Below are positions 2,685-52,612 of a stretch of DNA of 64,000 nucleotides, one piece after another (within the stretch, counting starts at the first letter, position 1; the number at the start of each line of letters is the position of its first letter). The notes beneath the pieces are model-generated. The model was given only the letters and a program-made list of their open reading frames with translations, was not told the origin of the DNA and ran no database searches. The stretch is from a virus, in IMG/VR virus record IMGVR_UViG_3300010373_000005, positions 1 through 64,000 of that record. One strand, given 5' to 3'. The translations under genes and the position numbers were made by a program.

Positions 2685-4265
2685 CTACTGAATTGCGATC
2701 GCCTGCTGTCCAAGATTTTCAATAGAGTAAGTGATTCGCGGGTAGCCGGCAGAAGGCGTCAGGCTGCTGTTCGCATTCACGGAAATTACAGCCGGATTCG
2801 CGTTGCTGATAGCGAACGTCACGGCTAGCGTTCCGGCCGTTTTGTTCTGCACTTCCGTCCCTTCCAGTGTGATCGTGTTGCTCTGCGTGCCGGCCTTGTT
2901 CGTGCCATTGAACACGTAGATTCCAGAATAGACCTGGAAGTCAGTTCCGTCAGTCACCTCGACGGTATATGTTATTTTTCCGCCAATCGTCGATCCGTTA
3001 GCTTCCGTGCAATTGACAATCGCGATTGCCGAATTGTTCGTGAGAACCTTTGACGCGCCAGAGACCAGCCGGTCAACGAGGGTTTGTGCCGTCGTGCCGG
3101 ACGATCCGCCGAGTGCCCCGGACTGCAAATGAACCTTCGCAGGCACGGCAGAGCCGGTGCTGATGCCGGCCGCAATGATGACCCTTGCGCCGGCGATGTT
3201 TGTTCCAGTGCCCCCGGTTCCATGATAGACGATGTTCTGCGGCGTCGCGTGGACGGGACCATTGCCAATATAAACGTCGGTGATGTAGCCGCCCTGCAAT
3301 GTCGGGCCACCCACGACGAACTGATTGGCGGCCGTGTCGCTGGCGTTCCTCCCCAATACGATGCTGCCTGCATTTGAGACGGTGACGTTTGTGCCGATTG
3401 CAATTGTGTTCGTAGCCGTCACCGATGATGTGCGGCCAACAACGACGGAAAAATTACTAGTAGTGCTGCATAAGTATCCGACAACGGTGCCACCCTGACT
3501 GCTAGAAGATGATCCGTTACCGACGACGGTAGATTCCGCGGCACTTACAGTCGAGCCAGCCCCGAACACTTCTGCATGGGCTATTCCCTGTGAATTTGAA
3601 AATGCGGCCGACGACCCATTCAGTGAAAGCACGGCCCCGCTGCTCAGCGTCATCATATCCGTAAAGCTACCGCTTCCCGCTGCACTGATGCGTGACGACC
3701 AGACCATGCTGCCGCTAGGTGAGCTTCCCGCTGTTGTACGAACTTGGCGAAGGAACTCGACGTAGTTGTCCGCAGGAGTTCCCGACGTGTTCCAGGCGTG
3801 GCCTATGTCGTGGTCGCAGGGGACGTACTGGTTCTGGACCGAGACGGTTGAAGCGGTGGCGTTCTGATTTACACGCGAGTCGGTCTGCGTCGTCGTGATG
3901 TTGTTCTGTTGCCAGATGTGTTTTCCGGTCCACCTTGGAGCAATCGTCTGATCCAATGCCGGAGCTCCGTCCGATCGCATGAACGTCGCGGCTGAGCCGT
4001 TGACGGCGGTGAGTCCGACAGAGGCAGTGGGATTGCCGGCGGATGGGCCCGTCACTGCGGACCATGACGTATTGCCGCTGCCATCGCTCTTGAGGTAGCC
4101 CGACGCGTCGGCTGTCGGCATCTTCCAGACGACAGACGGTCCCACTGACGGCGACACCCATCCTGCGTATCCCGACGTGGCCCCGAGCGTGACAAGCCCA
4201 GTACCTTTGGCCGATGCTGGCTTCAGGTTGCCGTTTCCGTCAGGGATCATCAGCTTTATGGACAC
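2685..4265 (-). CDS. tail fibre protein
   Basis: 526 aa with a GTG start. The N-terminal SDGSGNTSWSAVTG...FMRSDGAPALDQ...WTGKHIWQ pattern is typical of phage fibre N-termini (from recall). A long Ser/Gly/Thr/Asn-rich beta region follows. Confidence 0.7.
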   Translation of the reverse strand: MSIKLMIPDGNGNLKPASAKGTGLVTLGATSGYAGWVSPSVGPSVVWKMPTADASGYLKSDGSGNTSWSAVTGPSAGNPTASVGLTAVNGSAATFMRSDGAPALDQTIAPRWTGKHIWQQNNITTTQTDSRVNQNATASTVSVQNQYVPCDHDIGHAWNTSGTPADNYVEFLRQVRTTAGSSPSGSMVWSSRISAAGSGSFTDMMTLSSGAVLSLNGSSAAFSNSQGIAHAEVFGAGSTVSAAESTVVGNGSSSSSQGGTVVGYLCSTTSNFSVVVGRTSSVTATNTIAIGTNVTVSNAGSIVLGRNASDTAANQFVVGGPTLQGGYITDVYIGNGPVHATPQNIVYHGTGGTGTNIAGARVIIAAGISTGSAVPAKVHLQSGALGGSSGTTAQTLVDRLVSGASKVLTNNSAIAIVNCTEANGSTIGGKITYTVEVTDGTDFQVYSGIYVFNGTNKAGTQSNTITLEGTEVQNKTAGTLAVTFAISNANPAVISVNANSSLTPSAGYPRITYSIENLGQQAIAIQ

Positions 4266-9007: not shown

Positions 9008-10423
9008 TCAGTGCGATCCGTGCCCGTTGGTAGCCTCTATCCCCGCGGATCCGGCCGGAACCTGCAGGCGACCCTCGCCGGGCGGGGCCTCCTCCTGCAC
9101 CGCCTGCCGCGGGTCAGGATTCCGCAGCGGGCCGCCCGAAGGATCGTACCTCCCGCGGTGCAGCGTCTGCTGCGTGGTGCGCGTCGGCAGCTCCAGGACG
9201 TCCCTGATGGCCGGCATGTCGAGCACGTCGGCCTCCTCTGCCTGACCTCCCTCGTTCCCGAGGTGAGCCATGTACACCTGCTTGAAGAACGCGCGCTTCT
9301 CGCTGCTGAGTGGGGCAGCCTTTATCTTCACCATCCCGACGTACTCTTCGCCGCAATTGGTCTCCAGCAGCGGGTCGACCCCCTGCGAGTTTACCTGCGA
9401 CACCACGTCCCTGTGCGCCATCTCCTGGTTGTCGATGGCGAAATCCGCGTGCTCTCCGGCCTCAGCCTTGGTTCCGAACTGCCCCTCCGTGACCGCGCGC
9501 TCAGGAATGCCGAACGCCCTGCACTTGAGCGAGTCGAGGTATCTGCCGCGCTCCACGAAGTTGGCCTGCGTGCTCGCTGCGGACACGAGCTGCACCGACC
9601 AGGTCACCTTGTCCTGGCCTATGGAATTCAGGTCCTCGATCTGCTTGGCCACCGTCAGCGGGATGGTGATCACGCCCGACGACTGCAGCGTGTGTCCGAG
9701 CGCGCTCGCGATCCTCGCGTTGTCGGTCTCGACACCGTTGAGCATCGTGGTGCCTACAGGGTACTGGATCACCCAGCTGGCGCCAGCCACCTTGTTATCG
9801 AACCTCCTGGCAGCGAGCTCAGACTCGTAGTGCCCGTCGTACGGCACCTCGGCGCGCTTCATCAACGGCTCGCCGTACCAGTTCGTGCCCTCCGCGTCGT
9901 GGTAGAGTACCAGCGACTCCCCTCGCCAGAGTCTCGTAGGCTCGTGGTACTGGTGCGACCAGTACGGGGTGTTCAGGAGTCCTAAGATCTCGCCGTGCTC
10001 GTTGACGACGATCTCGGTGATGTCGTGCAGCAGGGACTTCATCTTGGTGATCTGCAGCGTGCAGTCAGGCAGCTGCCTGCGCACCAGCTCGAACCCCGCC
10101 CAGCCGTAGTCCAGCAGGCCCCTGAACGCGTCTCTGAGGAACTTCTGCCTGTGCGGCAGGAAGGACTTCTTTACCATATCCACGGCACTCTTGTACCGCT
10201 CTTCCTCAGCCTCTACCGTCCACTCACTGGCCAGGGCAGGCGCCATGAAGATGTCGCGCAGGAACCCGATCGTCGGGTCCCTGCGCATGATGCGAGCCTT
10301 GCGGTACCAGACTGACCGGTCCAGCACCGTCGCCGCCAGGATCTTTGCGCCCGGCGGCAGGTAGGTGCTGATGCCCGAGACGCGTGTCGTCTGGGCAGCA
10401 GTCTTGCTCTGGTGAGTTGACAT
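9008..10423 (-). CDS. portal protein (candidate)
   Basis: 471 aa. The size, the position in the TerL operon and the acidic/aromatic composition fit a portal. No database check was possible. Confidence 0.6.
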   Translation of the reverse strand: MSTHQSKTAAQTTRVSGISTYLPPGAKILAATVLDRSVWYRKARIMRRDPTIGFLRDIFMAPALASEWTVEAEEERYKSAVDMVKKSFLPHRQKFLRDAFRGLLDYGWAGFELVRRQLPDCTLQITKMKSLLHDITEIVVNEHGEILGLLNTPYWSHQYHEPTRLWRGESLVLYHDAEGTNWYGEPLMKRAEVPYDGHYESELAARRFDNKVAGASWVIQYPVGTTMLNGVETDNARIASALGHTLQSSGVITIPLTVAKQIEDLNSIGQDKVTWSVQLVSAASTQANFVERGRYLDSLKCRAFGIPERAVTEGQFGTKAEAGEHADFAIDNQEMAHRDVVSQVNSQGVDPLLETNCGEEYVGMVKIKAAPLSSEKRAFFKQVYMAHLGNEGGQAEEADVLDMPAIRDVLELPTRTTQQTLHRGRYDPSGGPLRNPDPRQAVQEEAPPGEGRLQVPAGSAGIEATNGHGSH

Positions 10424-14122: not shown

Positions 14123-17100
14123 TCAGTTCGCGCTCGGCTGCGGAGTCTCCCTGGCAGGCGCCGACGACACCACGCGCCCACCCAGCTTCCTGACGAGCCT
14201 CATCCCGGCCTTCGTCATCTTCTTCGCGACGACGTACGTGCCCTGCGCGGCGAGCGTGGCGACGACGCCCATGCCGACGAGACCTGCCACCGCGGCAGCG
14301 GCTGCAGGCATCGACATGAACTGGATGGTCACCGCGCCGGCGAGGGCCGAGGCACCCATGTCCATCTCGTACGAGGCGCCCCTGCCTGCCCGGATCTTCC
14401 CGCACACCCTGCGCGCGGCCTTGACAGACCCGTAGCGCCTCTGGGCATCAGCAACGCACTTATTCCAAGGATACCTCTTCTTTTTCTTCGCGAGGCCTAC
14501 GGCGAGCTTGGGGTGCCTGCGCGAGACGACCTTGGGCTTCGGACCGTCGCACTCTGCGCCGCAGAACTCTGCAAAAGAATAGTACGCGTCGTGCGACCTG
14601 TCTCGCTCGGCCATCTGCTCCGCGACATTGCCGGTGGCCTGCACCTTGCCTCCGAGCTTGCTGAACACGCTCCTGAGCTTGCCCATCAGCGCGCTCGTCA
14701 CCCCGTAGACGACCAGCACCGTGCCGGCGCCCGCGGCTCCGACCGCGACGCCTGCCGCAGGCACCGCGAGGGTAGCAGTGAGCCCCAGGGCGATCAGCAT
14801 CCTCATGGCGGTGCGCGCGACGATGCCAGAGCCGAACTTCACGGCAACTGCCGTGCCGGCACCCTTAGCTATCGCGGTGCCCGCAGAGAACGACGCGGCG
14901 CGCCACTCCCCGTGGCTGTCTCGCGGGTGCTGGCTCTCGTTCCAGCCGCCGTGACCTCCGCCGGGGCGCGCGCCCGATCCGGGCGGCCTGCCGGGACCCC
15001 GCCTCACCTGGGGCCCCTCGCTGTCGTAGCGAGGTTCCACCGCGTGCTGCGGGACCCCGCGGGCCTCGTGCTCCCTGCGGGCGGTCTCCCGGGCCCTGTC
15101 CTGGTGGTAGTCCTGCGCATGGTCGTCCTCGATAACGCGGTTCACCTCGTTCGCGTGCGTGATCCTCGTGATCGGGCCCTTGGGCACCGGCGCGGGCTTG
15201 CCCTTGAACGCCCGGGCGAGGCCCTGCACGATCTTGTACGAGGCGTAGCTCGACACCCCGAACACGAGGATGGCGGTGCCGACGCCGGTCGCCACGCCCG
15301 CTGCGGCTAGTCCTGCGGTCAGTCCGAGCTGCAGCGCCCTCCGAACGACATGTCCCGCGACGCCCTTGGCGACCGAGATCGCGACCTTACCCCCGGAGAT
15401 CATGCCGAACTCGCACGCGTCGAAGTACTCCACGTCGTCGAACGACAGGTGTCGCCACTCTCCGTGCTCGTCCCTCGGGTGTCGCTCCTCCTCCCAGCGG
15501 ATCGCGTGCGCGCCGTGGTGCCTGGCGATGGCGTACACGTGCTGCGGAGGGTGGGCGTGCTGGACGTGAACCTCGTGCTCGCCCTCGTGGTCCCCCTTGG
15601 CGTGCACCATGGCCTTAAAGCCCTTGGACGCCAGGTGCTCGATCGCGGCGAGGGCCGCCACCTTGCCCGCGAAGTGCAGCACGGCCTTGCCGACGAACTT
15701 GGCGGCCGGCATGCTGATGCCGAACGCGTAGGACGCGCCCTTGCCCTTGGGCTTACTCTTCGTAGCCTGACGCGCAGCCTTACGAGCCTCCTTCGTCTTC
15801 TTGGCCCTGTCTGCGGGTGTCTCGGGCCGGAACCCGGGATGTGATTGGATCGCGTCCCACCCCGTGGGAGGCTTGGTCGCGTTTGCCGCCACGTCGTAGA
15901 TGTCGTGCAGCGGGTGCTGCGGACCCGTCTCCTGGTTTGTTCCCGGCCCGCTCGGCATGAGCTGCCGGGCGTTGCGAGCCTCGCGCGCTGCTACTCTTAC
16001 CTTACGCAATTGGCGCCCGTGGTAGTGCTGCACTATCGACTCGAAGACCTTCGCTAGTACTGCGGAGAGTCCCGCGGTCATGTGCCCGTACTGGTCGGTG
16101 TTCGCGTCGACGATACCCGCGTCCCTCGCGGCCTGCAGCGCCTTCTTGGCGACCACTGCTGAGCCGAAGTCGATGGCATACATCACCGCCGCGCCCTTGG
16201 CCGACACGTCCTTCTGCTGGTACTTGCTCTGGCTCTTGGGCGAGAACGACCCTGGCATCGGGATGATGGGTCCCGACGTCTTGTACATGATGGGGACGTG
16301 GTCTACGTGCTTCTTGTCCTTAGGATCGACCGCCTCCATGATCGTGTGGTGCACGATCTCGTTGGCCTGCTCGTGAGTCATGCCCGAGAGGATGAACCCG
16401 TTGCCGATCATTGTCGGCGTGATGCCGTGCTGGTTCCTGACTGCAGTGAATGCCGCCTTGGCCCACGTCGGATAGTTGAACATCACCTTGAAGTCATAGG
16501 TGGCATCAGCGCCGTTGAGGGCGAAGGCGTGGGACATCGCCTTCACCGGCGAGCCCCTGTACTTCAGGATGGCGTAGTTCACGGCCTTCATTGGGCCTCT
16601 GACGAGCATGCGTCGCTTCTTGTCCTGTCGCGCCACGGTGCACCCCTGGTTCTCGAGGAACTTCTGCGCGTCCTCGGCGTCCTCGAGCTGCTCGAAGTAG
16701 AGCCTCAGCTTGCGCTCGGATGGTTCCTGCCGCGTCCCGTGAGGCGGATTCCGCGACTGCGAGATCTCGGAGTGCGGCTGCTGCGGAGGTGCTTGAGGCT
16801 GAGTCGCGGTATCCATGCTCATGTCCCTACCTGTTGACCCCAAGAAACGAAGTGCGGCCCTGCGCACTGTTGCCTCGTCGTTCACCGCATCGCACTGTAC
16901 TGTCCATATGCCGTTCACCTTGCGATGCCAATCAAGGTCGCAGGGTGGAGACTCTTGCTTCAAGACCCATCTCACGAAAGCTTCCGCTGCCACTTGAGAA
17001 GGAAAGTGCAGCACCACTTTTCGCTCCACTCCGAACGAGTACCAGAAGTGCGACGAATCCTCCTTCTTGCGCTTGTCAAGACCTCGAGACACTCTGAACC

Positions 17101-19411: not shown

Positions 19412-19810
19412 TTACTTCTGCAGCAAGAGCATCTTCACCAGGCAACTGGCCGTGTTGGCCAGCAACCAGTAGGTGACTCCGGGCTCCATGTCGAGCGTCT
19501 GGGGCGCGCCGCCCACCCCTGCCGCTGGTCCGGGAGGCAGCCTGATCACCGGCTGGAACGCGGCGCTGACGACTATGCCCAGCTGGACGTAGTTCGTCGG
19601 GTCCATGTTCTGCAGAGACAGCCTGCCCTCTGAGCCGCCGGCTACCGCGCCGATGGGCATCTGGGTGCCGGTGCCCGTCGTGACGGCCGTCACCTCGTCA
19701 GGGTGCTCTACCGCTGTCGTCTGGTTGTACTGCCCAGACGAGTGGAAGGAGTCGTTGAGGGCTCCATTCAGGACCGAGACGTTGACGGATATGGTGATCT
19801 CGTTGGCCAT
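19412..19810 (-). CDS. small virion structural protein (candidate)
   Basis: 132 aa with beta-rich composition (ITISVNVSVLNGALNDSF...). Own RBS. Located in the virion block. Confidence 0.55.
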   Translation of the reverse strand: MANEITISVNVSVLNGALNDSFHSSGQYNQTTAVEHPDEVTAVTTGTGTQMPIGAVAGGSEGRLSLQNMDPTNYVQLGIVVSAAFQPVIRLPPGPAAGVGGAPQTLDMEPGVTYWLLANTASCLVKMLLLQK

Positions 19811-19850
19811 ATGATTTCCTACGAGGACTACGACCTCATAGCAGTCTTAC

Positions 19851-21656: not shown

Positions 21657-22331
21657 CTAGGGAATTGCGGCGTCCATCTCCGTGACCTGCTTGTCCAGCT
21701 CCTCAGGCGTAAGGTCCGTGCCGAGGCGCTCCCTCTGCTGCTCTACCAGCTCTAGCCTGGCGCGCAGCGAGCGCTCGAACTCCGGCACCCTGTGGTCGTC
21801 GCCGAACGCCTCCGCGGCAGCCTGCATGACCTGCGTCACCAGGTGCCCCACCGCGGTGGTGAACGAGTCGATGATCTTGGCCTTCGTCTCCTCGACGGTG
21901 GCGGCGGCCTTCACGATTTCCGACACCTCTTTCATGGAAGACTTGAGCAGCTCCGCGGCGAGCAGCTGGGCCTCGGGCTTACCAGACGCCACTGCCTCGT
22001 CGTACTGCTGCACGCTGTGCGACGCCGCGTGCCTGACGAGCAGCACCTCGTCGAGCAGCGACAGCTGCTCCGTGATGGGCGCGTCGCGCACGGCTCCCTC
22101 CACTGCCTCCAGCAGTGTCGGCCTCAGTTTCGCCAGGTAGAACTTATGCATGAAGTTCTTCCCCCGTATGTCCATGAGCCCCAGGTGCCTGTCGCAGCGG
22201 TCCTCTCCCGGCACGCAGTCCCTGGTGCACCTGTTGCCGCGCTTCGAGGGCGACTTCATGGCCTGGCACTGCCCGTTCGGGTAGCGCGACTGGCCAGGCA
22301 CCCATGTGTCGTTGACGTGGTCCCATGACAT
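21657..22331 (-). CDS. zinc-ribbon-like N-terminus + coiled-coil protein
   Basis: 224 aa. GQCQAMKSPSKRGNRCTRDCVPGEDRCDRH is a Cys cluster, followed by a long helical region. Confidence 0.6.
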   Translation of the reverse strand: MSWDHVNDTWVPGQSRYPNGQCQAMKSPSKRGNRCTRDCVPGEDRCDRHLGLMDIRGKNFMHKFYLAKLRPTLLEAVEGAVRDAPITEQLSLLDEVLLVRHAASHSVQQYDEAVASGKPEAQLLAAELLKSSMKEVSEIVKAAATVEETKAKIIDSFTTAVGHLVTQVMQAAAEAFGDDHRVPEFERSLRARLELVEQQRERLGTDLTPEELDKQVTEMDAAIP

Positions 22332-22355
22332 CGCTGTCTCGTTCTACGAGTTCCC

Positions 22356-22604: not shown

Positions 22605-22789
22605 CACCAGCTCCCGTAAGAGTCGTAGTACTTCGCGGCCAGGGCGACGAGCTCCGACCAGTGATCCCTCGCGTACAGGGCACCCCACAGGACGTTCGAC
22701 GCCAGCGAGATGATCAGCATCATCGTGCGCCTCACGAGGGCCTTCTCGTATGCTATCTCGTCAGCCATCCGCTGCGTATAGGTGCTCAT
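22604..22789 (-). CDS. small membrane protein
   Basis: The ATG at 22789 overlaps the stop of the sigma gene (ATGA). TM segment RRTMMLIISLASNVLWGALY. Confidence 0.5.
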   Translation of the reverse strand: MSTYTQRMADEIAYEKALVRRTMMLIISLASNVLWGALYARDHWSELVALAAKYYDSYGSW

Positions 22790-23388
22790 TCGATTATCCC
22801 TTCCCCGTAGCTCGCCCACTGCGTCCCGTCGCCGTCCAGTCCGTCCGCCGCCCTCTGCGCCTGCGCGAGCGCTTCCTCCCTGAGGCGCTTAGCCTCTCCC
22901 CGGCGTATGCCGAGGTGCTTCGCTATCTCCGAGTCGTCGCACCCGTGGAGGAACGTCCACCTGAGGATGTCCGCCAGCGAGGATGGCATCCTCTCGAGAA
23001 CCATACTTACCCGCAGGTGTCCCTGGTAGTCCCTCGTGCACGTGAGCTCGTCGCGGATAGTATCCTCGCCTTCGATCGAAGGTGAGGATACGACCGTGAG
23101 AGGTACAGTCGGCACTTTCTTCTTGTACTTCCTGTCGAGCGCCCACTCGAGCGCGTACCACCCGACGTTCCTCAGCAGGAAGCTGATCGGCAGCACGGGC
23201 TGCCCGGTCTTGCTGCTGACGTGCGCCGGGTCGTAGTTCCGCATGATGTCCTGGCACCGCGCCAGCACCACGTCCCCGTAGGCGTCGTCGAGCTCACGCA
23301 GGCGGTGCCTCGGCAGGTAGTCCCGCACCTTCTGCCTGAGAAACTTCTGGTTCTGCACGACCAGCTCCCACACCTCTGCCTGCGTCAT
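22786..23388 (-). CDS. sigma-70 family (ECF-like) sigma factor
   Basis: 200 aa. The region 4 HTH can be read directly: ERMPSSLADILRWTFLHGCDDSEIAKHLGIRRGEAKRLREEALAQ. The N-terminal half has region-2-like length and composition. Confidence 0.7.
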   Translation of the reverse strand: MTQAEVWELVVQNQKFLRQKVRDYLPRHRLRELDDAYGDVVLARCQDIMRNYDPAHVSSKTGQPVLPISFLLRNVGWYALEWALDRKYKKKVPTVPLTVVSSPSIEGEDTIRDELTCTRDYQGHLRVSMVLERMPSSLADILRWTFLHGCDDSEIAKHLGIRRGEAKRLREEALAQAQRAADGLDGDGTQWASYGEGIIE

Positions 23389-24898
23389 CTTGACTCCTGT
23401 CGTCTTGACAGGCCTCCGTGATCATGTCCCGTAGTACTGTGAACTCCGCCACCGACACCGTGTGCATCCTGAGCTGCCCACGAGACCTGAGCATGTCGCC
23501 CACGTCGTGCACCGGCTGGAACGCGTGCTTGAACAGGTTCTGGTACCACGCGTCGAAGCCCTCCTGCGCGCGTGCGGACTTGCCTGGCAGCTTTACCGCG
23601 CTGCTCGTGAGCCAGCGGGAGAGGCCCTCGAGCATCCGGCGCTGGGACTCGACACCGTTCTCGACGCGAGCGAGCCTGAGATCTAGACTGAGCGGCACCT
23701 TACGCGAATCGTCATGGTCGATGACGACTACTCTGTCCGGCTGGAGCCGCTTCCCGTTCCTCGTGAAGTACACGCCCAGCAGCCTGCTGTCCTCCTCGCA
23801 CTTCCACACGTCCTCGGCCGTGGCGAAGCCCTTGATCAGTGACGGCCCCTGCTGCGAGAGCCAGTTCGCGAGCCTTGCGCCCAGTGACTTCTCGTCGCCC
23901 CTCTTATAGTCGCCCTTGAATTCTCGCTCGTCGCGCGCCCACGTGTAGACGTCGCACCAGGACTGCACGCAGTGATGTATCTCCTCCATGACGTCCGGCA
24001 CCTGGTAGCTCAGCAGGTCCTCCTCGAGCACCGGCGCGAGCTGGTCCAGCAGCGTGCACCACGCGGCCGCCAGGTCGATCTGAGCGACCACCGCGTCAGA
24101 CCACTCGTCGGCGAGCATGGCCTTCGGTCCCAGCTGTCCCTGGCGCGGGAGCTTGGACGTGACGCGCCCCACCGCGCGCATCCAGGCGTCGCGGTCTGAC
24201 GCGACCTCAGCGGGCAGCGAGCGCGAGCCACGCAGCACCATCCCGAGCTTGTCGATGACGTGGTCCTGGTGATCGCGCACGTCGAAGCCCACCTCTGCGA
24301 GGATCTTCTTGACACGACTCCATGCGGCGTGTCCCGCGGCCATCTCGTGTCGGTAGCGCTTGGCGCTCTCGACCCGCTGCGCCTCGCCCGCCGGGTCGCA
24401 GCTCTTGCACCCGCCGTCGCAGCCACTGCACCGCGAACCGTTGAGCAGCTCCTGCACGCGGCGCTCTAGACTCTGAGCGCATCGCTCCAGCTCTGCGATG
24501 CGTGCGTCCTTCTGCGCTATCGCGGTGTCACGCTCCGCGAGCGCGCGCTCGAGGCCCGCGATCTTCTGCGCCTGCGCCTCCCTGTCCTGCCTGAGCCCAT
24601 TGATCACCGCGTCGCAGTCGGCTCCCAGCGACTCCTCCTGGGCCATCTCGTCGTACGGAAACACCGCGGCCCGGAGCCGCTGGTACTGCTCGGCCCTGGC
24701 GACGAGCGTCTCAGTAGCACGATACGAGCAGATCTTCCTGATCCTCTCGACCAGGTCGCTCAGCCTCACGAGTATCGACAGCCCGCGCAGCTCGTTGTGC
24801 TCCTGCGAGAGGTGCGCGAGGAGCGAGTCCCATGCGTCGGCCTTGTCCAGCGAGCTGGTAATGATAACAGAAAGCTTCTGTCGCTCAGTCATGGTCAT
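23294..24898 (-). CDS. large coiled-coil/Cys-cluster hypothetical protein
   Basis: ATG at 24898 with a TAGGAG RBS. 534 aa. Coiled coil (AQKIAGLERALAERDTAIAQKDARIAELE) and a CSGCDGGCKSCD cluster. The 3' end overlaps the sigma gene by 95 nt. Confidence 0.6.
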   Translation of the reverse strand: MTMTERQKLSVIITSSLDKADAWDSLLAHLSQEHNELRGLSILVRLSDLVERIRKICSYRATETLVARAEQYQRLRAAVFPYDEMAQEESLGADCDAVINGLRQDREAQAQKIAGLERALAERDTAIAQKDARIAELERCAQSLERRVQELLNGSRCSGCDGGCKSCDPAGEAQRVESAKRYRHEMAAGHAAWSRVKKILAEVGFDVRDHQDHVIDKLGMVLRGSRSLPAEVASDRDAWMRAVGRVTSKLPRQGQLGPKAMLADEWSDAVVAQIDLAAAWCTLLDQLAPVLEEDLLSYQVPDVMEEIHHCVQSWCDVYTWARDEREFKGDYKRGDEKSLGARLANWLSQQGPSLIKGFATAEDVWKCEEDSRLLGVYFTRNGKRLQPDRVVVIDHDDSRKVPLSLDLRLARVENGVESQRRMLEGLSRWLTSSAVKLPGKSARAQEGFDAWYQNLFKHAFQPVHDVGDMLRSRGQLRMHTVSVAEFTVLRDMITEACQDDRSQDDAGRGVGAGRAEPEVSQAEGAGLPAEAPPA

Positions 24899-25514: not shown

Positions 25515-25838
25515 TCACGCGCCGGCCTGCTTGTCCATAGACTTCCTGACAATTTTCTTCCTTCCGAAGATTACCCTATAGATCCGCTCGCGGGCGTCGC
25601 CCGCGTGAGCCTCTGGCACGAACGCGTAGAGCTCGCCGGGGACGCCGCGGGCCTTCTCGAGCATGCGCGCGGCTGCCTCACGCCAGTCGGGACCCTCCGG
25701 GCCGTCGAGCGCGTCCCACATGCGCTGCGCGTCGCGTATAGGGTCGGTGAAGGTGAGCCGCACGCGCCGGCGCTCGGGCTCGACCAGCTCGACCTCGACG
25801 TATGTCATGAACTGCGGGAAGGTGACGTCGATCCTCAC
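25515..25838 (-). CDS. hypothetical protein
   Basis: 107 aa. The GTG start overlaps the upstream stop (GTGA). Confidence 0.55.
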   Translation of the reverse strand: MRIDVTFPQFMTYVEVELVEPERRRVRLTFTDPIRDAQRMWDALDGPEGPDWREAAARMLEKARGVPGELYAFVPEAHAGDARERIYRVIFGRKKIVRKSMDKQAGA

Positions 25839-26635
25839 GGGTTCTCCCTCCGGTCGGCGCGCGTCATCGCGGTGTCGAGCATGATCTTGATCTGCGAGAT
25901 GTCCCTGCGCACGAGCGCGAGGTCTCGCTTAGTCCACTTGAGCGTCTGCTTGTACTCCTTGAGCAGTCGCCGGTTACGAGCGTTCTCCACCGGCGAGTTC
26001 TTGCGCGACGCGCGGACTCGCTTGGTCTTGGGCGCGAGCTCCTCCTCGTCCATCTCGAGCTGCCGCCGCTGGGAGTCGAGTCGCCTGAAGATGTCGATCA
26101 TCGAGTCCTCAGGGTCGCTCACGACCAGCTGGAGCTGCTTCACGTCGGCGATCAGTTCTTTAACGCGGGAGTACTGCTCCTTCGCCTTCATCCGGTGGTA
26201 GTCGCGTCGCTGCGTCTCGTCGCGAGGCTCTGCGCCCGCGCCGCCGTTGAGCACCATGGGCGACTTGCGACTGTTGAAGAACGCGAGCGACGCTATCTCA
26301 GCGAGCACGCGAGAGCGCCCGTCGAGCTCCGAGTGCTCGTCGACGTGCTTCTGCATTTCCTCGACGAGCGGCGCCATCAGCGCGACCTGGCGACCACACT
26401 GGAGCGACCGCTGCGAGAAGTACGTGCGGTTGCCTCCCAGCTGACGCGCGCAGTCCGCGAGCTTGGCGAAGAGCACCTCGTCTTCTCTCAGTTGTCGTGC
26501 TCTCATCTTCTTTAAGATGAGAGCTTCCGACAAGACGAGGGCCCCTCGCTCCAACACTTCCTGGATCTCCGGGTCGAGCTCCCCGTGCCTGACGCGGCGC
26601 CTCTGCATCTCGTACTTCTGCGCGAGATCACTCAT
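25835..26635 (-). CDS. hypothetical charged helical protein
   Basis: 266 aa with an ATG start. First gene downstream of the inverted-repeat segment. Confidence 0.6.
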   Translation of the reverse strand: MSDLAQKYEMQRRRVRHGELDPEIQEVLERGALVLSEALILKKMRARQLREDEVLFAKLADCARQLGGNRTYFSQRSLQCGRQVALMAPLVEEMQKHVDEHSELDGRSRVLAEIASLAFFNSRKSPMVLNGGAGAEPRDETQRRDYHRMKAKEQYSRVKELIADVKQLQLVVSDPEDSMIDIFRRLDSQRRQLEMDEEELAPKTKRVRASRKNSPVENARNRRLLKEYKQTLKWTKRDLALVRRDISQIKIMLDTAMTRADRRENP

Positions 26636-26672
26636 GATTCGACTCCTCGGGTCTTCTGCGGGCTGCGAGACT

Positions 26673-26924
26673 TTAGTTATTATCTGAACCGCTATTCTGC
26701 TCTAGGACTAGACTAGGTCGAGACCGGTTATAATAATCGACCTGTTATAAGAACCTGACCTGATTTCTCTCTCTGTTTCTCTGTAACTCTCTGAGATTTG
26801 AGAAGATCAAAGCTCAGTGAAAGTTCAAATTTAGTATAACTGTAGTTTGTAACATATCCTTTATAATAACTGGTTATCTACCTGTCCAGTGCTAGAGCAG
26901 AATAGCGGTTCAGATAATAACTAA
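26673..26924. repeat. perfect 33-bp inverted repeat flanking a 186-bp AT-rich spacer
   Basis: Left arm 26673..26705 TTAGTTATTATCTGAACCGCTATTCTGCTCTAG. Right arm 26892..26924 is its exact reverse complement. The spacer is visibly AT-rich and carries TATAAT-like strings. Confidence 0.95.
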
Positions 26925-26981
26925 GTTTTACCTGAACTCTCACGTGTTTTTGCCCCACTCTCGCACAGAAACTCACCACTC

Positions 26982-27278
26982 TCAGCAGTTCTCTGCGTCG
27001 TCGCAGGGTCTCACCTCGTCGCCGAGGTCCATCTCATTGAAGTTGACCAGTCTGGTCGGACCTCCCCCGAACGTCGGGTCCCCGACCGCGCGCTCGCACC
27101 ACGCGAGACCCACGCAGAGCTTGTCGCTGCCGCTGCGATAGACCGAGAGCACCTCCCAGCTGTCCGGGGGCGCGCCCCACAGTGGGTAGGCGTTGCGCGT
27201 GCCGATCAGTCGCTCGAGACGCCGGTACCTCCGGCGGTCCCACGGCTGCGCCAGGGTCATCGTGTGTCGTAGGTTCAT
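26982..27278 (-). CDS. hypothetical protein
   Basis: 98 aa. The ATG overlaps the upstream stop (ATGA). Confidence 0.55.
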   Translation of the reverse strand: MNLRHTMTLAQPWDRRRYRRLERLIGTRNAYPLWGAPPDSWEVLSVYRSGSDKLCVGLAWCERAVGDPTFGGGPTRLVNFNEMDLGDEVRPCDDAENC

Positions 27279-27810: not shown

Positions 27811-28752
27811 CTATTCCGGCGCGCACTCGTTCTGGAACGTCTTCCTGTACTGCCGCCAGCCGCGGAAGTTGCCGGACTGCTCCACAGACCCGTCGCTCCG
27901 GCGGCTGCTGGCAGGCATCGCCTGCGCCACGTGCTCCGTGGGAGCCCAGTGCCCGAAGCCTGAGCCCCTCCTGAGCTTGTCGGCCAGTTCCAAGTCCTTC
28001 CTCCAGTCACGCTTGCCATCGTGCGTGAGGTAGCTGACGCGGGCCACGCGGGCGGCGCTGATGGCGTTGAGCATCTCCGTCATGCCCTGTCCTGTGGCCA
28101 AGCCACTCCATGGCGCCCCAGCTCTGAATTTATTCACCAGCTCGTCGCAAGGGTCTTGCAGCGCGACTCGCAATTCGCGAGAAAGTTCCTCCTTGTCGTT
28201 CCCCGTCACGTACGGCCTGTGCCACTCGCCCTCCTTCCTGGGCGTCGGTACGCTCGCCTCCATCGCATCTCGCCACATGTAGGCTATCTTCTGTATGTGA
28301 GGCTCCGCGTCCGGGTGGCACCTCAGCCTGAAGAAGTTCTGCCAGTCTGTAGCAGTCACGATCACGGTTATCCACATCCACGGCTCGACGAGACGATTAC
28401 ATAGGCTCTTATGTAATCCACTCTTAGCAAGCGCCCTAGCTTGTGACACCGCCATGTCCCGCGCCGCCAGCCACTCGCACTGGCAGATCACCCTGTCGGG
28501 AGCTTCCAGCTCCGCGCCCTGCTGCATCCCCCTCGCCTCTGAGCCCCACCTGATCGGGATCACCGGGTCGTCCAGTACCGCCGCGAGCATCTTCGCCAGC
28601 GGGATCGCCCGGCTCGACGCTGAGCTCCTGCTCAGCGCCCTGTGCGTCAGCAGCTCGCTGTGGACGAACCTGGGATAGGTGAGGACTCCCGTAGTCAATC
28701 TGACTCCTGTGGGCCCTATGCTGTCCAGCAATACCTCAGCCTTGTACGCCAT
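27811..28752 (-). CDS. thyX: FAD-dependent thymidylate synthase ThyX
   Basis: ThyX signature RHRxxSxxxxSxR read as LTHRALSRSSASSRAIP. Also FFRLRCHPDAEPHIQKIA. The ATG at 28752 overlaps the upstream stop by 1 nt. Confidence 0.8.
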   Translation of the reverse strand: MAYKAEVLLDSIGPTGVRLTTGVLTYPRFVHSELLTHRALSRSSASSRAIPLAKMLAAVLDDPVIPIRWGSEARGMQQGAELEAPDRVICQCEWLAARDMAVSQARALAKSGLHKSLCNRLVEPWMWITVIVTATDWQNFFRLRCHPDAEPHIQKIAYMWRDAMEASVPTPRKEGEWHRPYVTGNDKEELSRELRVALQDPCDELVNKFRAGAPWSGLATGQGMTEMLNAISAARVARVSYLTHDGKRDWRKDLELADKLRRGSGFGHWAPTEHVAQAMPASSRRSDGSVEQSGNFRGWRQYRKTFQNECAPE

Positions 28753-29000
28753 CACTCGCTCCTCCTGTAGTAGAGAAAAGTATGCCTCGACACCTCGTAG
28801 AACCACCCTCCCGCGTCCCTGAACCAGCCCTCGAACGGCGGCTGGTCCTCTCCCCCGCCGAACGCGTAGTGCACCTCGACGACTTCGCCGGACTCCAGCA
28901 TCACGTCGTAGTGCACCACGCGGGTGTCCCTGCCCTCAGGCATGGCCTCCGCGAACCACCAGTGGTCGGGACCGCACGGAGATGTGTCGCTCCAGGGCAT
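28752..29000 (-). CDS. hypothetical protein
   Basis: 82 aa with an ATG start. Trp-rich. Confidence 0.55.
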   Translation of the reverse strand: MPWSDTSPCGPDHWWFAEAMPEGRDTRVVHYDVMLESGEVVEVHYAFGGGEDQPPFEGWFRDAGGWFYEVSRHTFLYYRRSE

Positions 29001-31846: not shown

Positions 31847-31953
31847 CACGGACGCCAGGAATCGAACCTGGTCTTCGGGTCTTAGCCGCGTGCGCTCTCG
31901 CAGACTTCTGACGTCATCGCCTGCGCAGTCTTGTCCAGCCACACCGCGTCCGT
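31847..31953 (-). ncRNA. tRNA-like element (canonical T-arm + 7-bp acceptor helix, non-canonical 106-nt body)
   Basis: The minus strand reads ACGGACG...CCAGG-TTCGATT-CCTGG-CGTCCGT. The T-arm has G53/C61 and a TTCGATT loop. The acceptor pairs 7/7. I could not fold a 5-bp anticodon arm. Confidence 0.35.
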
Positions 31954-31975
31954 GTACGCTCTTATTATACCAGAC

Positions 31976-33356: not shown

Positions 33357-33369
33357 TGTTAAGATAGGT
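33357..33369 (-). promoter_or_regulatory. ACCTATCTTAACA motif copy 1
   Basis: 13-mer identical to 38478..38490. It ends 10 nt upstream of the ATG at 33346. Confidence 0.3.
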
Positions 33370-33425: not shown

Positions 33426-33436
33426 TGTTAAGATGG
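33426..33436 (-). promoter_or_regulatory. CCATCTTAACA motif copy 2
   Basis: Same intergenic region, 69 nt from copy 1. Shares the 9-mer ATCTTAACA. Confidence 0.3.
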
Positions 33437-38477: not shown

Positions 38478-38490
38478 TGTTAAGATAGGT
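38478..38490 (-). promoter_or_regulatory. ACCTATCTTAACA motif copy 3
   Basis: 13-mer identical to 33357..33369. It follows the stop at 38497 after a 6-nt gap. Confidence 0.3.
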
Positions 38491-46397: not shown

Positions 46398-46903
46398 GGT
46401 TCGTTCTCCTTGAGGTAGTTGATGATCTGTTCGTCGTCTCCGACCAGCTCGACCTGACCATCGGGCATGTGCCTGGCGGTGATCCCCCAGTCCCACAACG
46501 AGTTAAGCAGCTCGAGCCCGCCGATCGATATGAGGAGCTCCTCTGTGTCGACCTCAGTTCCGTCGGGCTGCTTGAGAGGCAACTCGCCCTCCTTGACGAT
46601 CTTGCGCGTTGGCTCGCTGGTGCCCTCCACGCCCCACTCCTCGCTGAGCGCGAAGTTCCACAGCTTGCGCTCGGCTTCCTCGAGGCTCGTGAAGCAGTCT
46701 AGCCAGGGGTACCCCTGGCTAGACTGCGTGTCGAACACGCCCTCACCGATGAGGATGGCGACCCTGACGGGCTGCCTGTCGTTGTCGTACTTCGACTTCA
46801 GCCAGTACTGGAACCTCGGCTCGTTGTGGCTCGCGTCGCCCTCCCAGTCCTCCATGGGACCAGTGCAGAGCTTGCGACTCTTCTGGAACTCTTCGAACGT
46901 CAT
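46394..46903 (-). CDS. hypothetical protein
   Basis: The ATG at 46903 overlaps the upstream stop (ATGA). 169 aa. Confidence 0.55.
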   Translation of the reverse strand: MTFEEFQKSRKLCTGPMEDWEGDASHNEPRFQYWLKSKYDNDRQPVRVAILIGEGVFDTQSSQGYPWLDCFTSLEEAERKLWNFALSEEWGVEGTSEPTRKIVKEGELPLKQPDGTEVDTEELLISIGGLELLNSLWDWGITARHMPDGQVELVGDDEQIINYLKENEP

Positions 46904-48212: not shown

Positions 48213-48640
48213 GATACTACTTCTCCACGGATTACCGGCTCCGCTGGGCCGTTCCGTCTACCGCACTGGCTGATACCAGTGTACGGCAGCGCGGGCCAGA
48301 GGAGCCTCAGTCCTTGTGGCTGAGGCCCCGTCGTGGTTCGCGCTCCCTGTGAGTCGCTGAGGTCACCCCCTGCCGGGCGCTGTACCGGTCCACCCGTCGT
48401 GCCGACGGGCCAGGGTCGCCGTCTCAGCCATCCGCCCCGGTACGCCTCACGGCGTTCCTCTCGCGGTCATGGCCTCCACGGCCGTCTACCAGGTTGTCCC
48501 TCCAGAGCGTGGCGTGCACCGCGGCCAGGTCTCCCTGTTGGTGGCTTACCGCCGCCGGTCTCTCGTGCCAGTCACCGGGGACGGCGGCTCGGGTCCCCAC
48601 CGCCAGGTGCCTGGGGTGGCGGGCCGCCGTTCTGAAAATA
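48213..48640 (-). ncRNA. candidate structured leader / ncRNA (unclassified)
   Basis: No minus-strand ORF of 60 aa or more appears in the ORF track across about 430 nt of GC-rich sequence. Several clean hairpins: 48304-48326 (7 bp), 48393-48409 (7 bp), 48442-48455 (ACGCC-GUGA-GGCGU in minus sense, a GNRA loop). Confidence 0.35.
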
Positions 48641-48783
48641 TTTTAACATGTCTGCACTGAATAAAAATTCAAAACAGGTTTCTGCGTAAGTGGCGGTCGG
48701 TCCGATGGTTACATAGTGAACATTTGCTAACTAAGTTCAATAATTATTTAATTATTAACTCAGTTTTTAATTTTAACGCCTTC

Positions 48784-49335
48784 TTAGAGCTGGGATGCCT
48801 CAATTAGAGCCTTACACCTAATGATAATCAGGCGCACCCCACCGAGGCTCAGGTTATAGTATTCCGCGAGAGACCTCATGGAGAACTTGTTCGTAGCGTA
48901 GTAGTTGTAGAGTTCAAGTTCTTCTTCCGGAGTGAGCTTGTGAGGGCGACCCTTCCCAGTAGTATACATATGCCCGGCCGCTATCGCATCTTTCATATTT
49001 GAGAGATGAGTGTCCCATCTCAAGTTGGTGATAGCGCAATTCATGGAATCACTGTCATTGTGGCAGGCTTCTAGTCCCGCAGGACATAAGCCCCTAAACG
49101 CCCTCAGCACTGCTACATGAACTCGAAGAGGGTTGGCAGAGTACATCCTGGCCGCTCTGTATTTTCCAATAGTGCTCTCCTCCACTCGTACTAACTCGTC
49201 GCCTTGCTCCCAGTCTACCCAGCTGCGACCGGCGACGCGGTTGTTCCAGATGGTCCACAACGTGCCGTCAGCACGCGCAAAGAATCCTAGCTCCCCGGGT
49301 ATGGGTCTTATTTCTACTCCGTCGTGCGTCAGCAT
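48784..49335 (-). CDS. HNH homing endonuclease
   Basis: CHNDSDSMNCAITNLRWDTHLSN (HNH_3), a NUMOD4-like N-terminus and a C-terminal HTH. Visibly lower GC than its neighbours. Confidence 0.8.
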   Translation of the reverse strand: MLTHDGVEIRPIPGELGFFARADGTLWTIWNNRVAGRSWVDWEQGDELVRVEESTIGKYRAARMYSANPLRVHVAVLRAFRGLCPAGLEACHNDSDSMNCAITNLRWDTHLSNMKDAIAAGHMYTTGKGRPHKLTPEEELELYNYYATNKFSMRSLAEYYNLSLGGVRLIIIRCKALIEASQL

Positions 49336-49349
49336 CTCGTTCTCCTACC

Positions 49350-51239
49350 TCAAACAAACTTTCGCTTAGCGTCATCAGATTTAGCAATAGCCCAGTTGGG
49401 ACCCCAGCCGATGGCCGCCTTGATAGGCACCCTGAACGGCCGCGACGGGCTCTCGAGCACCTTCACTATCTTGCGCAGGAAGCGCTCGTCCTGGCAGAGC
49501 TCGAGCGGGGCGTAGCCCGCCACCTCGTCGTGCACCTGCGCGAACATCTCGAACTCCGGCACCTCCTCGGCGAGGGCGACCATCCGCTCCCGGCAGAGCT
49601 CTCCCGCCGTGGACTGGCACAGGCTCGGCAGGGCCGTGTGTGCTGCCTGCTCCGGCAGGTGCCTGAGCGCGCCGTAGTGGTTGCGCACCGAGCCCCTGGC
49701 CCTGCACGCGGCGGCCGCGCGCTCCCTGACCGAGCGCAGCTCCGGCAGGTCCGCGTGATACTTGTCGAATACAGCGGTGGCGCGGTACGCGCAGGCACGC
49801 TCGACCGCGGCACGTCGGGCCTCAGGTGGGATTGTACTGTCATTGACAATTTCATCCCAGATGGTCCCGACGAACTTCTTGTTGATGGCCAGGGCGGCGA
49901 TCGTCTTCTTCTTTCCCTGCCCGAACCCGATGGCGAAGTTCAGCGTCTTGGCCGCGTCGCGGCTGCACGGTATCGAGTCGGCGATCATCTGGTGGAAGTC
50001 GGTCCACGGGTCGTCCTGGTACATCTGGATGCACCGCCGGTTCTCCAGGTAGTGCACCAGCACCCTGTACTCAACCTGCGAATAATCCGCGCAGATGATC
50101 CCGTAGCCCTCGGGAGCCTCGACCAGCGACTTGGCCGCGGTGTCGAACTGCTGCGGGTTGGGCTCGCTCGCGCTCAGCCGGCCCGTGCGCACCCTGCCGT
50201 TGAACGTCGGGTGCAGCCTGCTGTCGTCGGAGATGTGGCCCTTCTTCTCCCACGCCCCGACGAACAGCGACTGGAACGTGGACAGCTTCCTGTAGTCCAG
50301 GATGCCCTGCACGATCTCCGTGGGCGCGTCTGGGTGGTCCAGGTAGAGCGCGAGCGCGTCAGCGTCGAACGACGGCCCTGGCTTCGACATCGTGCCGTCC
50401 GCCCTCTCGCTCGGCTCGGTCCAGGCCAGCACCGGCAGGCCGAACTGGTTGCAGAGCACGTCGTAGCAGTCCTTGTTCGAGGTGGCCGAGAAGACCCGCC
50501 CGATGAGCTTCTCTAGCTCGTAGTCCTTCTCGAGCATCTTCTTGATCGTGTCAATGTGCGCTCGCTTGACCTTCTTCCGGTCGATGAGCATCCCGCGGCG
50601 CTCCATGTCGAAGAGCACGCGTTCGAACTTCTTCGACGTCTCCCAGACCTCGTCGGAGACCGCCGGGAAGTGCTGCTCCTGCCAGACGTCTAGCTTGATG
50701 TTCGTCCTCACGTCGACGCACGCGTACTCTGCCAGGATGTCCAGCGGCACGTCGCCGTAGTCCTTGGAGTCCTCGAGGTACGGGAGCATCGCGCGCCCGT
50801 ACTTGTCGATGTTCTCCTCGAGCAGCTGCTCGGAGAGGACGTCGAGCCCGTAGCCTCCCTTGTAGATCCTGTCAGAGTCGATGAGCTTCGCCCGCGTGAG
50901 CGTGCAGCGCATCTCCCTCTGGAAGACCTCATTCAGGTCGTTGGCCGACACGTGCGCGTCGTACTTGACGTGATGGTTGGTCCAGGCGGCGGATGCCCTG
51001 AGCACGTCGCCCCACCAGCCTGACATGAGCCGCTTCGGCACGAACCAGATAGGACTGTCGCGCCCGAACGCCACCGCGACGCCTATGGCTGAGCAGTGGT
51101 GCCAGGGATTGGTCGACTTGAGCTTCGGGTCTCCAGACGAGGTCTCAAAATCACAGTATAAGTTTGGTATTATACTTGGAACTGATGGAAGATCTCCATG
51201 AGTTTCACAAAGCATCCCACCAGATTCAAACTTTATCAC
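49350..51239 (-). CDS. family A DNA polymerase with 3'-5' exonuclease domain
   Basis: Exo I LYCDFETSS. Exo II NHHVKYDAH. Exo III YACVDV. Motif A ICADYSQVEYRV. Motif B RDAAKTLNFAIGFG. Motif C FAQVHDEV. The GTG start overlaps the HNH stop. Confidence 0.9.
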   Translation of the reverse strand: MIKFESGGMLCETHGDLPSVPSIIPNLYCDFETSSGDPKLKSTNPWHHCSAIGVAVAFGRDSPIWFVPKRLMSGWWGDVLRASAAWTNHHVKYDAHVSANDLNEVFQREMRCTLTRAKLIDSDRIYKGGYGLDVLSEQLLEENIDKYGRAMLPYLEDSKDYGDVPLDILAEYACVDVRTNIKLDVWQEQHFPAVSDEVWETSKKFERVLFDMERRGMLIDRKKVKRAHIDTIKKMLEKDYELEKLIGRVFSATSNKDCYDVLCNQFGLPVLAWTEPSERADGTMSKPGPSFDADALALYLDHPDAPTEIVQGILDYRKLSTFQSLFVGAWEKKGHISDDSRLHPTFNGRVRTGRLSASEPNPQQFDTAAKSLVEAPEGYGIICADYSQVEYRVLVHYLENRRCIQMYQDDPWTDFHQMIADSIPCSRDAAKTLNFAIGFGQGKKKTIAALAINKKFVGTIWDEIVNDSTIPPEARRAAVERACAYRATAVFDKYHADLPELRSVRERAAAACRARGSVRNHYGALRHLPEQAAHTALPSLCQSTAGELCRERMVALAEEVPEFEMFAQVHDEVAGYAPLELCQDERFLRKIVKVLESPSRPFRVPIKAAIGWGPNWAIAKSDDAKRKFV

Positions 51240-52393: not shown

Positions 52394-52612
52394 CTAACAT
52401 GTCGGGTCTTCTCCTTCGTTAGTGACATTCTCGTCTGGTACCACGTCGCACGACGACGGGTCCACCCACCTCCACTTCCCGGCCGCGTCCTTGAAGTGAC
52501 CGCGACCGTCCTTGGACACGAACTGCACGCGCACCTTGGTGGGCCTGACGGCCCGATCCTCTATCTGCGTGGCCACGTACCACGTGCGCTCACTTAGCAT
52601 CAGTACAGGCAT
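52394..52612 (-). CDS. small hypothetical protein
   Basis: 72 aa. Overlaps the 3' end of the ThyA-like gene by 23 nt. Confidence 0.45.
   Translation of the reverse strand: MPVLMLSERTWYVATQIEDRAVRPTKVRVQFVSKDGRGHFKDAAGKWRWVDPSSCDVVPDENVTNEGEDPTC

Follow-up and report, generated by a model that had tools for sequence, protein, structure and literature searches.

A single-copy AT-rich foldback element with a promoter-like site in the early region of an uncultured tailed phage

Why does a GC-rich phage genome carry a perfect 33-bp inverted repeat around a short AT-rich segment between two of its early genes? The locus lies in the IMG/VR virus record IMGVR_UViG_3300010373_000005, of which positions 1 to 64,000 were analysed as a single stretch of 64,000 nt (the window), and the element in question occupies 252 bp at 26673-26924. 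An earlier reading of the letters alone (the sequence-only reading) had proposed an invertible promoter switch, an insertion resembling a miniature inverted-repeat transposable element (MITE), a replication origin or packaging site, and a giant regulatory hairpin in the transcript. The structure is genuine and statistically unmistakable, and a regulatory role for it is plausible. The answer that we favour, and hold only tentatively, is that the element is a MITE-like foldback cassette that supplies an early promoter and insulates the block of genes downstream.

Anatomy of the foldback

The left arm, a 33-mer of sequence TTAGTTATTATCTGAACCGCTATTCTGCTCTAG, spans 26673-26705 and recurs as its exact reverse complement at 26892-26924, just as the sequence-only reading had described. 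The match between the arms stretches to 41 nt with two mismatches (95%; 26673-26713 against 26884-26924), and an arm match, counted with up to three mismatches allowed, appeared in none of 100 dinucleotide-preserving shuffles (0/100). The window holds no second inverted repeat of more than 25 nt within 2 kb. All credible genes of the region lie on the minus strand, and the right arm is the upstream arm with respect to transcription. The element and its arms are as follows.

26673-26924, no strand assigned: the whole element, a non-coding, AT-rich foldback cassette of 252 bp, recognised by its GC content, stop codons and fold.
26673-26705, plus strand: the left arm (downstream with respect to transcription), 33 nt perfect and matching at 95% as far as 26713.
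26892-26924, minus strand: the right arm (upstream with respect to transcription), 33 nt perfect and continuing inward to 26884.

In terms of composition, the enclosed 186 bp have a GC content of 36.6% and the whole 252 bp one of 36.5%, compared with 62.1% for the window. The AT-richness that the sequence-only reading had ascribed to the enclosed segment is therefore real but not peculiar to it, as the arms (12 G+C in 33) are AT-rich like the interior; the compositional island is the entire 252-bp element, and the step in GC coincides with the ends of the arms. The element is one of the two lowest-GC stretches in the window, where comparable AT-richness is found only at two HNH homing-endonuclease genes and their tail. 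These two genes (48784-49335 and 51236-51850, minus strand) flank the gene of a family A DNA polymerase (49350-51239); local GC drops to 0.31-0.35 at them, and the first is followed downstream by a 183-bp non-coding tail (48601-48783, 40% GC) that bears no similarity to the element. Since the AT-rich islands elsewhere are HNH genes, AT-rich imports do occur in this genome. The element itself has stop codons in all six frames and hence no open reading frame, and it contains no tRNA and no Rfam family (none at gathering score or with E < 0.6). The TATAAT-like strings and the short repeats GACCTG and TTCTCT that had been pointed out in it are present.

The element is not an assembly artefact: an assembly separate from the MEGAHIT contig, that of Logan for SRR6185512, contains both flank/arm junctions. 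Logan yields two contigs that each stop exactly 30 nt into an arm, because a k=31 graph there meets a 33-nt inverted repeat. These breaks were considered as evidence of inversion and rejected, as they are a k=31 artefact and silent on orientation. The window also matches the ENA contig ERZ27256675 k141_5289394 (78,382 bp), the ends of which overlap by 141 bp, which indicates a circular or circularly permuted genome with a unit of 78,241 bp. Because the window spans the ends of this contig, its source record and the ENA contig must be different records; the orientation of the interior is identical in the two.

Complementarity does not end with the arms. When the left half is aligned with the reverse complement of the right half, 33 perfect positions are followed by about 65-70% identity with small gaps to about position 80, and then by nothing, such that the palindrome carries on in degenerate form through the interior, to about 80 nt on either side (half-to-half alignment, z 3.6). 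Consistent with this, the 186-nt interior alone folds better than its shuffles (z -3.4 and -3.7). The element is thus a long foldback, perfect at its ends and decayed toward its centre. The RNA fold of the whole element is a rod of -108.9 kcal/mol (z -12.2), and the corresponding single-stranded DNA fold reaches -60 kcal/mol (z -10.9); according to these models, read-through RNA or single-stranded DNA would fold as a rod of about 120 bp. No convincing consensus for IHF was seen by eye in the core.

A promoter-like site just inside the upstream arm

The sequence-only reading had seen promoter-like strings in the element, and the case for them proved stronger than the letters of this locus alone could reveal. 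Reading of the low-GC intergenic gaps prompted a search with the pattern T[TG]GAC[AGT]-N16-18-TA[TAG][AT][AGT][TA], which returned five matches in the window, all on the minus (coding) strand and four of the five intergenic, where shuffles lead one to expect 0.88 on both strands. All five fall in the early region between 25 and 44 kb, and no further match exists in the rest of the ~78-kb genome, including its structural part. The family comprises the following sigma-70-type promoter-like sites, the first of which belongs to the element.

26860-26888, minus strand: TGGACA (26888-26883), 17-nt spacer, TATAAA (26865-26860).
43797-43769, minus strand: TGGACG-17-TATAGT.
34886-34858, minus strand: TGGACA-17-TATAAT.
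31992-31964, minus strand: TGGACA-17-TATAAT.
25537-25509, minus strand: TGGACA-17-TATAAT.

The -35 hexamer of the site in the element begins 3 nt inside the upstream arm, and between the predicted start at about 26853 and the ATG at 26635, which opens the gene of a 266-residue protein (p266), the leader would measure about 218 nt. The chance of such a site on the coding strand of the shuffled element is 0.023. Together, the correct strand, the spacing of the family and its -35 hexamer suggest that transcription of the p266 - p107 - GNAT - p547 unit begins in the cassette, and the 26888 site is probably an active promoter. A consensus scan found a weaker site in mirror-image placement, which falls opposite the minus-strand promoter when the two arms are aligned with each other.

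26709-26737, plus strand: weaker, inward-facing promoter-like site TAGACT-17-AATAAT (9/12 in the consensus scan).

We propose that a host-type sigma-70 promoter just inside the upstream arm would start transcription at about 26853 and that the RNA would run through the interior and the downstream arm into p266, p107, the GNAT gene, p547 and possibly a sigma-like gene beyond them. This RNA would hold one arm only and would stay open; consistent with that, the predicted leader does not exceed its shuffles in structure (z 0.44). Transcripts that come from promoters further upstream would instead contain both arms and could form the duplex of about 120 bp, with an outer stem of 33 perfect pairs, which would serve as a substrate for RNase III or as a barrier and so uncouple the downstream block from upstream transcription. 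The giant transcript hairpin of the sequence-only reading thus applies to read-through transcripts and fails for RNA from the internal promoter. Long-range stems are the sites of RNase III action in lambda sib retroregulation and in the processing stalks of rRNA, and by analogy with lambda sib the arms would mark or impede the read-through RNA. A similar role may be drawn from Correia elements (PMC2649163) and from the promoter early stem-loop (PeSL) cassettes of phages (PMC2839356). An RNA gene or riboswitch was considered as well and rejected, there being no Rfam match and no structure in the leader.

The same promoter-like string could be a product of chance in AT-rich DNA, and the element a functionless, neutral relic of an insertion. 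AT-rich DNA readily yields -10-like strings, the chance value given above is small but not negligible, and the element is single-copy and shows no sign of conservation. However, the string lies on the coding strand, has a spacing of exactly 17 nt and carries the TGGACA hexamer that is common to sites of the family, and the insertion of a 252-bp hairpin into an operon is expected to be polar unless it brings a promoter along. We therefore hold a relic of this kind to be improbable.

The presence of promoter-like sites on both strands bears on the notion of an invertible switch, in which recombination between the 33-bp arms would flip the 186 bp and exchange the strong coding-strand promoter for the weaker mirror one. 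Here the geometry fits, as perfect repeats around some 190 bp with a directional promoter are typical of invertons, and the weaker mirror promoter is in place. The sequence-only reading had reported no recombinase gene in the window, and the same is true of the genome as a whole: among the genes of the ~78 kb, Pfam records none with an integrase, resolvase, invertase or transposase domain, although an enzyme of the host could act in its stead. Moreover, the palindromy continues into the interior, which recombination sites do not need, and both assemblies have the same orientation. An inverton is accordingly quite improbable. A Hin/Gin-type crossover site in the arm was rejected as well, since comparison by eye with such sites matched only a TTATC...AACC half without dyad symmetry; a protelomerase site, an attP site, a retron and a CRISPR-like repeat were dismissed on account of the 186-bp spacer, the inverted orientation and the lack of partner genes.

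The single-stranded DNA fold raises another possibility, namely that the folded plus strand rebuilds the -35 and -10 boxes as a promoter of the Frpo/ssi type, from which host polymerase would transcribe p266 onward or make a primer while the complementary strand is still missing. Hairpins of the Frpo kind precede early operons in the leading regions of plasmids (PMC12672017). In the fold obtained here both boxes lie in an imperfect stem, and a promoter rebuilt in this way would point so as to yield RNA in the mRNA sense of p266. A tailed phage with portal, capsid and tape-measure genes should, however, deliver double-stranded DNA, and an ordinary duplex promoter explains the motif without any folding; a single-stranded promoter is the least probable of the accounts considered, and to our minds highly improbable.

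Two other features of the intergenic gaps were noted along with the promoter family. A second intergenic motif, C[TC]ATCTTAACA, occurs at 33357-33367, 33426-33436 and 38478-38488 on the minus strand (three found, 0.2 expected) and might represent a further class of promoter, perhaps one recognised by a factor that the phage encodes. A tRNA-like structure at 31847-31954 (minus strand) begins at about the predicted start of the promoter at 31992; it combines a 9-bp stem of the acceptor kind (CACGGACGC/GCGTCCGTG) with a canonical T-arm (CCAGG-TTCGATT-CCTGG), while Rfam gives tRNA-Sec only 16.7 bits (E 0.71) and ARAGORN is negative.

Neighbourhood, further copies and counterparts in other phages

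The genome that houses the element is that of an uncultured, GC-rich, lytic-looking tailed phage of about 78 kb. It encodes a Mu-type portal, a Mu-F-like protein, a major capsid protein and a tape-measure protein, together with a family A DNA polymerase, an SNF2 helicase, a C5 methylase and a 1,495-residue protein with an HU domain. The element fills most of a gap of 346 bp (26636-26981), which is the largest low-GC intergenic gap and corresponds to the sizeable gap remarked on before. Without the element, flanks of 57 nt upstream and 37 nt downstream would be left over, amounting to an ordinary intergenic spacer of 94 nt; the junction at such an empty site would read, on the minus strand, ...GAGAGTTCAGGTAAAAC joined to AGTCTCGCAGCCC... 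The immediate neighbours are listed here.

26982-27278, minus strand: the upstream gene, p98, a 98-residue ORFan whose read-through transcripts would hold both arms.
25835-26635, minus strand: the downstream gene, p266, an all-helical ORFan of 266 residues and the first gene served by the predicted internal promoter.
26643-26648, minus strand: GAGGAG, read from the sequence as the ribosome-binding site of p266, 7 nt before the ATG at 26635-26633.

The genes around the element that had been named XRE, ThyX, SET and GNAT were confirmed by Pfam (the second as ThyX-like), and the sigma factor placed beside GNAT was not: the candidate, a 200-residue protein encoded 3.3 kb downstream (22786-23388, minus strand), has only a sub-threshold match to Sigma70_r4_2 (E 0.0034). 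It is a candidate for a phage-encoded sigma factor, situated downstream of the unit that the element would transcribe, and it has a homologue of 39% identity in the nearest phage found (L005, see below). The product of p266 belongs to no Pfam or PHROG family, and its structure model is of low confidence (mean predicted local distance difference test score, pLDDT, 52); it was rejected as a recombinase or sigma factor for want of a family match, the model being too poor for a structure search. In a set of 5.8 billion clustered proteins, neither p266 nor p547 has a match other than itself; the same holds for p266 among 1.8 billion representatives that were read exhaustively, and cluster look-ups of the flanking and nearby ORFans returned one to two members each. 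Many proteins of this phage are likewise without relatives in libraries of billions of proteins.

Other observations in the same genome concern its thymidylate genes and a second palindrome. Both a ThyX-like protein (27811-28806, minus strand; Pfam Thy1; PHROG thymidylate synthase, E 4e-62) and a ThyA-type one (52590-53591, minus strand; PF00303) are encoded, and a C5 cytosine methylase adjoins a thymidylate synthase gene. An uninterrupted palindrome of 48 bp, with 24-nt arms at 88% and zero spacer, lies at 46687-46734.

The closest phage found, IMGVR_UViG_3300010396_000009 (L005), has a ThyX of 72% identity and the gene order SET - ThyX - homologues of the window genes at 22789-23421, 21660-22343 and 19415-19846 - HU protein. 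In this phage the entire XRE-to-p547 block is missing, and no more than about 540 bp separate ThyX from the homologue of 22789-23421 downstream, which places the element inside an accessory, hypervariable ORFan block. An insertion of MITE-like type is suggested by this setting, together with the terminal repeats, the small size and non-coding nature of the element, a foreign GC content bounded by the arms, and the uptake of AT-rich selfish DNA elsewhere in the genome. We infer from these features that the cassette arrived by insertion. Insertion sequences often put their transposase promoter at that end, the one at which the promoter-like site is found here. Of the four proposals of the sequence-only reading, the MITE-like insertion fits the anatomy best, although neither a second copy nor an unambiguous target-site duplication could be added to it.

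Several results weigh against the cassette as we read it. The element is single-copy and has no family in the collections searched. The 33-mer, with up to three mismatches, occurs in the window only as the two arms, and a short-word BLAST of the window and the rest of the genome gave no second copy. A sensitive blastn search (11-base word) of 50,697 phage records (INPHARED) and 72,556 plasmids (PLSDB) returned nothing meaningful. Four exact patterns, representing the arm, the core and the paired arms, found no copy in IMG/VR, and the arm 21-mer and paired-arm 12-mers are absent from 185,579 GTDB species genomes. In the JGI metagenome contigs, one chance 21-mer was met inside an apparent eukaryotic ion-channel gene (L011). 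The hunt for further 33-mers that had been recommended thus came back empty from the genome, phage, IMG/VR, JGI, GTDB and plasmid sets; the collection pattern scans accept exact matches only, so that diverged copies or partners could be missed by them. The genome holds no transposase domain, and the same exact-match searches gave no insertion sequence with matching ends.

The ends of the element are equally unhelpful to an insertion. Its flanks, GAGACT and GTTTTA, have no direct repeat in common, and no non-palindromic target-site duplication is present, in agreement with what had been reported before; there is only a TA at 26674-75 and at 26922-23, which is palindromic and lies inside the repeat. 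Nor is there an empty site with which to compare, because p98, p266 and p547 are ORFans without relatives: none of the IMG/VR relatives found via ThyX shares the p98/p266 junction, and patterns drawn from SNF2 have no match in IMG/VR, the best phage record being 35% identical. As for insulation, no U-tract follows the hairpin, which is therefore not an intrinsic terminator. One further feature of the right-hand flank was recorded.

26925-26937, plus strand: GTTTTACCTGAAC, directly abutting the right arm and resembling arm positions 4-17 (GTTATTATCTGAAC) in a local alignment.

This stretch looks like a degenerate third arm end, at a significance that is marginal (about 0.05-0.1), as 5% of genome windows and 10% of shuffles score equally.

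Lastly, the internal promoter resembles the phage's own promoters, which argues for a home-grown region as much as for an import. On this alternative, an early promoter region gained its repeats in place, by inverted duplication or template switching, and kept them for an insulating or processing hairpin. The promoter does belong to the five-site family of the phage, the analogous element of L005 (described below) carries an L005-specific motif, and both elements are single-copy and without a target-site duplication. Conversely, the GC content of the element is far below that of the other promoter-bearing gaps (42-57%, 76-166 bp), the compositional boundary matches the arm ends, and 33 perfect nucleotides beside a divergence of about 35% require a special constraint or a recent origin. 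A palindrome that arose in place is for these reasons somewhat unlikely, and the MITE-like cassette remains the reading that we prefer.

Foldbacks of comparable size were found in other phages. In L005, an element of about 196 bp at 3925-4120 (39% GC; locus 53%) lies in the early region but in a different gap. Its 63-nt arms, 83% complementary, surround a spacer of 69 nt, and its predicted fold has an energy of -80 kcal/mol (z -10). It is non-coding, and 21 nt separate its end from the start of a 292-residue ORFan, the product of which matches only itself. Its inner part contains GGTTTCCCTA followed by TATTAT, a motif that occurs once more in L005, in the next AT-rich gap (5951). No target-site duplication flanks it, and no other copy exists in IMG/VR. 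Homology of the L005 element to that of the window was rejected, since the alignment score equals the shuffle mean, as was homology between the genes downstream of the two (BLASTP E 0.08, not significant). A distantly related siphovirus with an SNF2 protein of 35% identity, MW202657.1 (L018), has a 233-bp element at 16027-16259, with 60-nt arms (83%) around 113 nt, in a region of small open reading frames; two genes annotated as hypothetical overlap with it, and it is neither AT-rich nor equipped with a promoter-like site. Thus intergenic elements capable of forming long hairpins are found repeatedly in the early regions of these phages, without a common sequence. Their recurrence fits independent insertions of foldbacks and, equally, a structural or regulatory role with free drift of the sequence. 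Separately, IMGVR_UViG_3300005096_000003 (L008) carries at 10339-10409 a perfect 27-nt inverted repeat with a 17-nt spacer and TTGACA in each arm, which may be a palindromic promoter or operator.

The distribution of these elements is pertinent to the view that the foldback is an origin activated by transcription, in which the promoter fires into an easily melted AT segment and a purine-rich RNA-DNA hybrid primes synthesis, much as at the primary origin of T7 and the oriF and oriG origins of T4. A tract of suitable composition is present in the predicted transcript, any role for it being speculative.

26753-26792, minus strand: purine-rich tract of the predicted transcript (plus strand pyrimidine-rich, 80-83% in 30-nt windows).

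The element is also among the two lowest-GC stretches with a promoter immediately upstream, the pentamer GTTAT occurs in it seven times in symmetrical positions, and in three loosely related phages about one element with long repeats was seen for each genome portion, which suits a single-copy cis site. On the other hand, the enrichment of GTTAT is of marginal significance (P 0.055 for any 5-mer), neither the cumulative GC skew nor the cumulative AT skew has an inflection, genes for an initiator or for replication are not adjacent (PolA lies 22 kb and SNF2 8 kb away), and the L018 element is neither AT-rich nor promoter-bearing. The origin or packaging site of the sequence-only reading is thereby left with little in its favour, the locus being far from the portal/terminase region as well, and we regard a transcription-activated origin as improbable. 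A wider version, in which the element would be no stray insertion but a single-copy cis site typical of the lineage, a hairpin-enclosed host-type promoter serving either as an R-loop origin or as a single-stranded DNA promoter, with functional counterparts in the unrelated but similarly built elements of L005 and MW202657.1, has a similarly small chance of being correct.

If the MITE-like cassette is the right reading, it would be a rare case of such an element in a virulent-looking phage, rewiring early transcription by its own promoter and by read-through RNA that is marked with a duplex. The analysis further brings to light the promoters of a phage lineage that is uncultured and rich in ORFans, and it hints that intergenic elements able to form long hairpins are a repeated feature of the early regions in related phages. 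Current understanding is not overturned, and the argument is one made at the level of sequence.

Comparison with known systems

The proposed fate of the RNA is reminiscent of lambda sib and of the rRNA processing stalks, in which both halves of the stem are present only in transcripts from an upstream promoter, so that only those are processed. The stem of the present element differs in being much longer and perfect, and in being predicted from sequence. Regarding its layout, the element resembles fimS and the invertons of Bacteroides, where inverted repeats surround about 200 bp with a directional promoter upstream of an operon; unlike those, it has a palindromic interior, it appears in one orientation in both assemblies, and no recombinase was found in its genome.

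Closer in setting are the PeSL cassettes of T4-type phages, which combine a sigma-70-like early promoter with a stem-loop between small ORFans in a hypervariable early region and are thought both to start and to block transcription (PMC2839356, PMC4122927). PeSLs are short and numerous within a genome, and their small G/C-rich terminator stems lie within or beside the promoter, whereas the present element is a single one of 252 bp whose stem encloses the whole promoter and about 150 nt besides, with no U-tract. In this phage the promoter motif is found five times but the stem only here, the other long inverted repeats being unrelated.

The architecture of the element is best compared with that of MITEs and the Correia elements of Neisseria, which are likewise small, non-coding and intergenic, with long terminal inverted repeats and a TA at each end (PMC2649163, PMC11602168). 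MITEs have terminal inverted repeats of at least 10-15 bp, a length of 50-800 bp and no open reading frame, and the element has all three, with arms of 33 nt (perfect) or 41 nt (at 95%); it forms no multi-copy family, and the exact-match searches turned up no partner transposase or insertion sequence. It is thus MITE-like in build and is not called a MITE, the multi-copy test having failed and the target-site duplication, which measures 2-10 bp in MITEs, being ambiguous. In Correia elements, inverted repeats occur together with promoters and with binding by RNase III (PMC2649163), and the likeness to them extends to promoter-like sequence near the ends and to transcripts that can be folded into a long hairpin to which RNase III could bind. 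Unlike MITEs and Correia elements, the one described here is single-copy, has no known partner transposase and has a TA indistinguishable from the repeat; its promoters face inward rather than outward, its arms are perfect and longer (33-41 nt), and its home is a lytic-looking phage. MITEs are rare in viral genomes, being present in 0.01% of them (PMC11602168). The element is accordingly a variant on known themes, those of MITEs with promoters and of the promoter/stem-loop cassettes of phages, and not a new kind of system.

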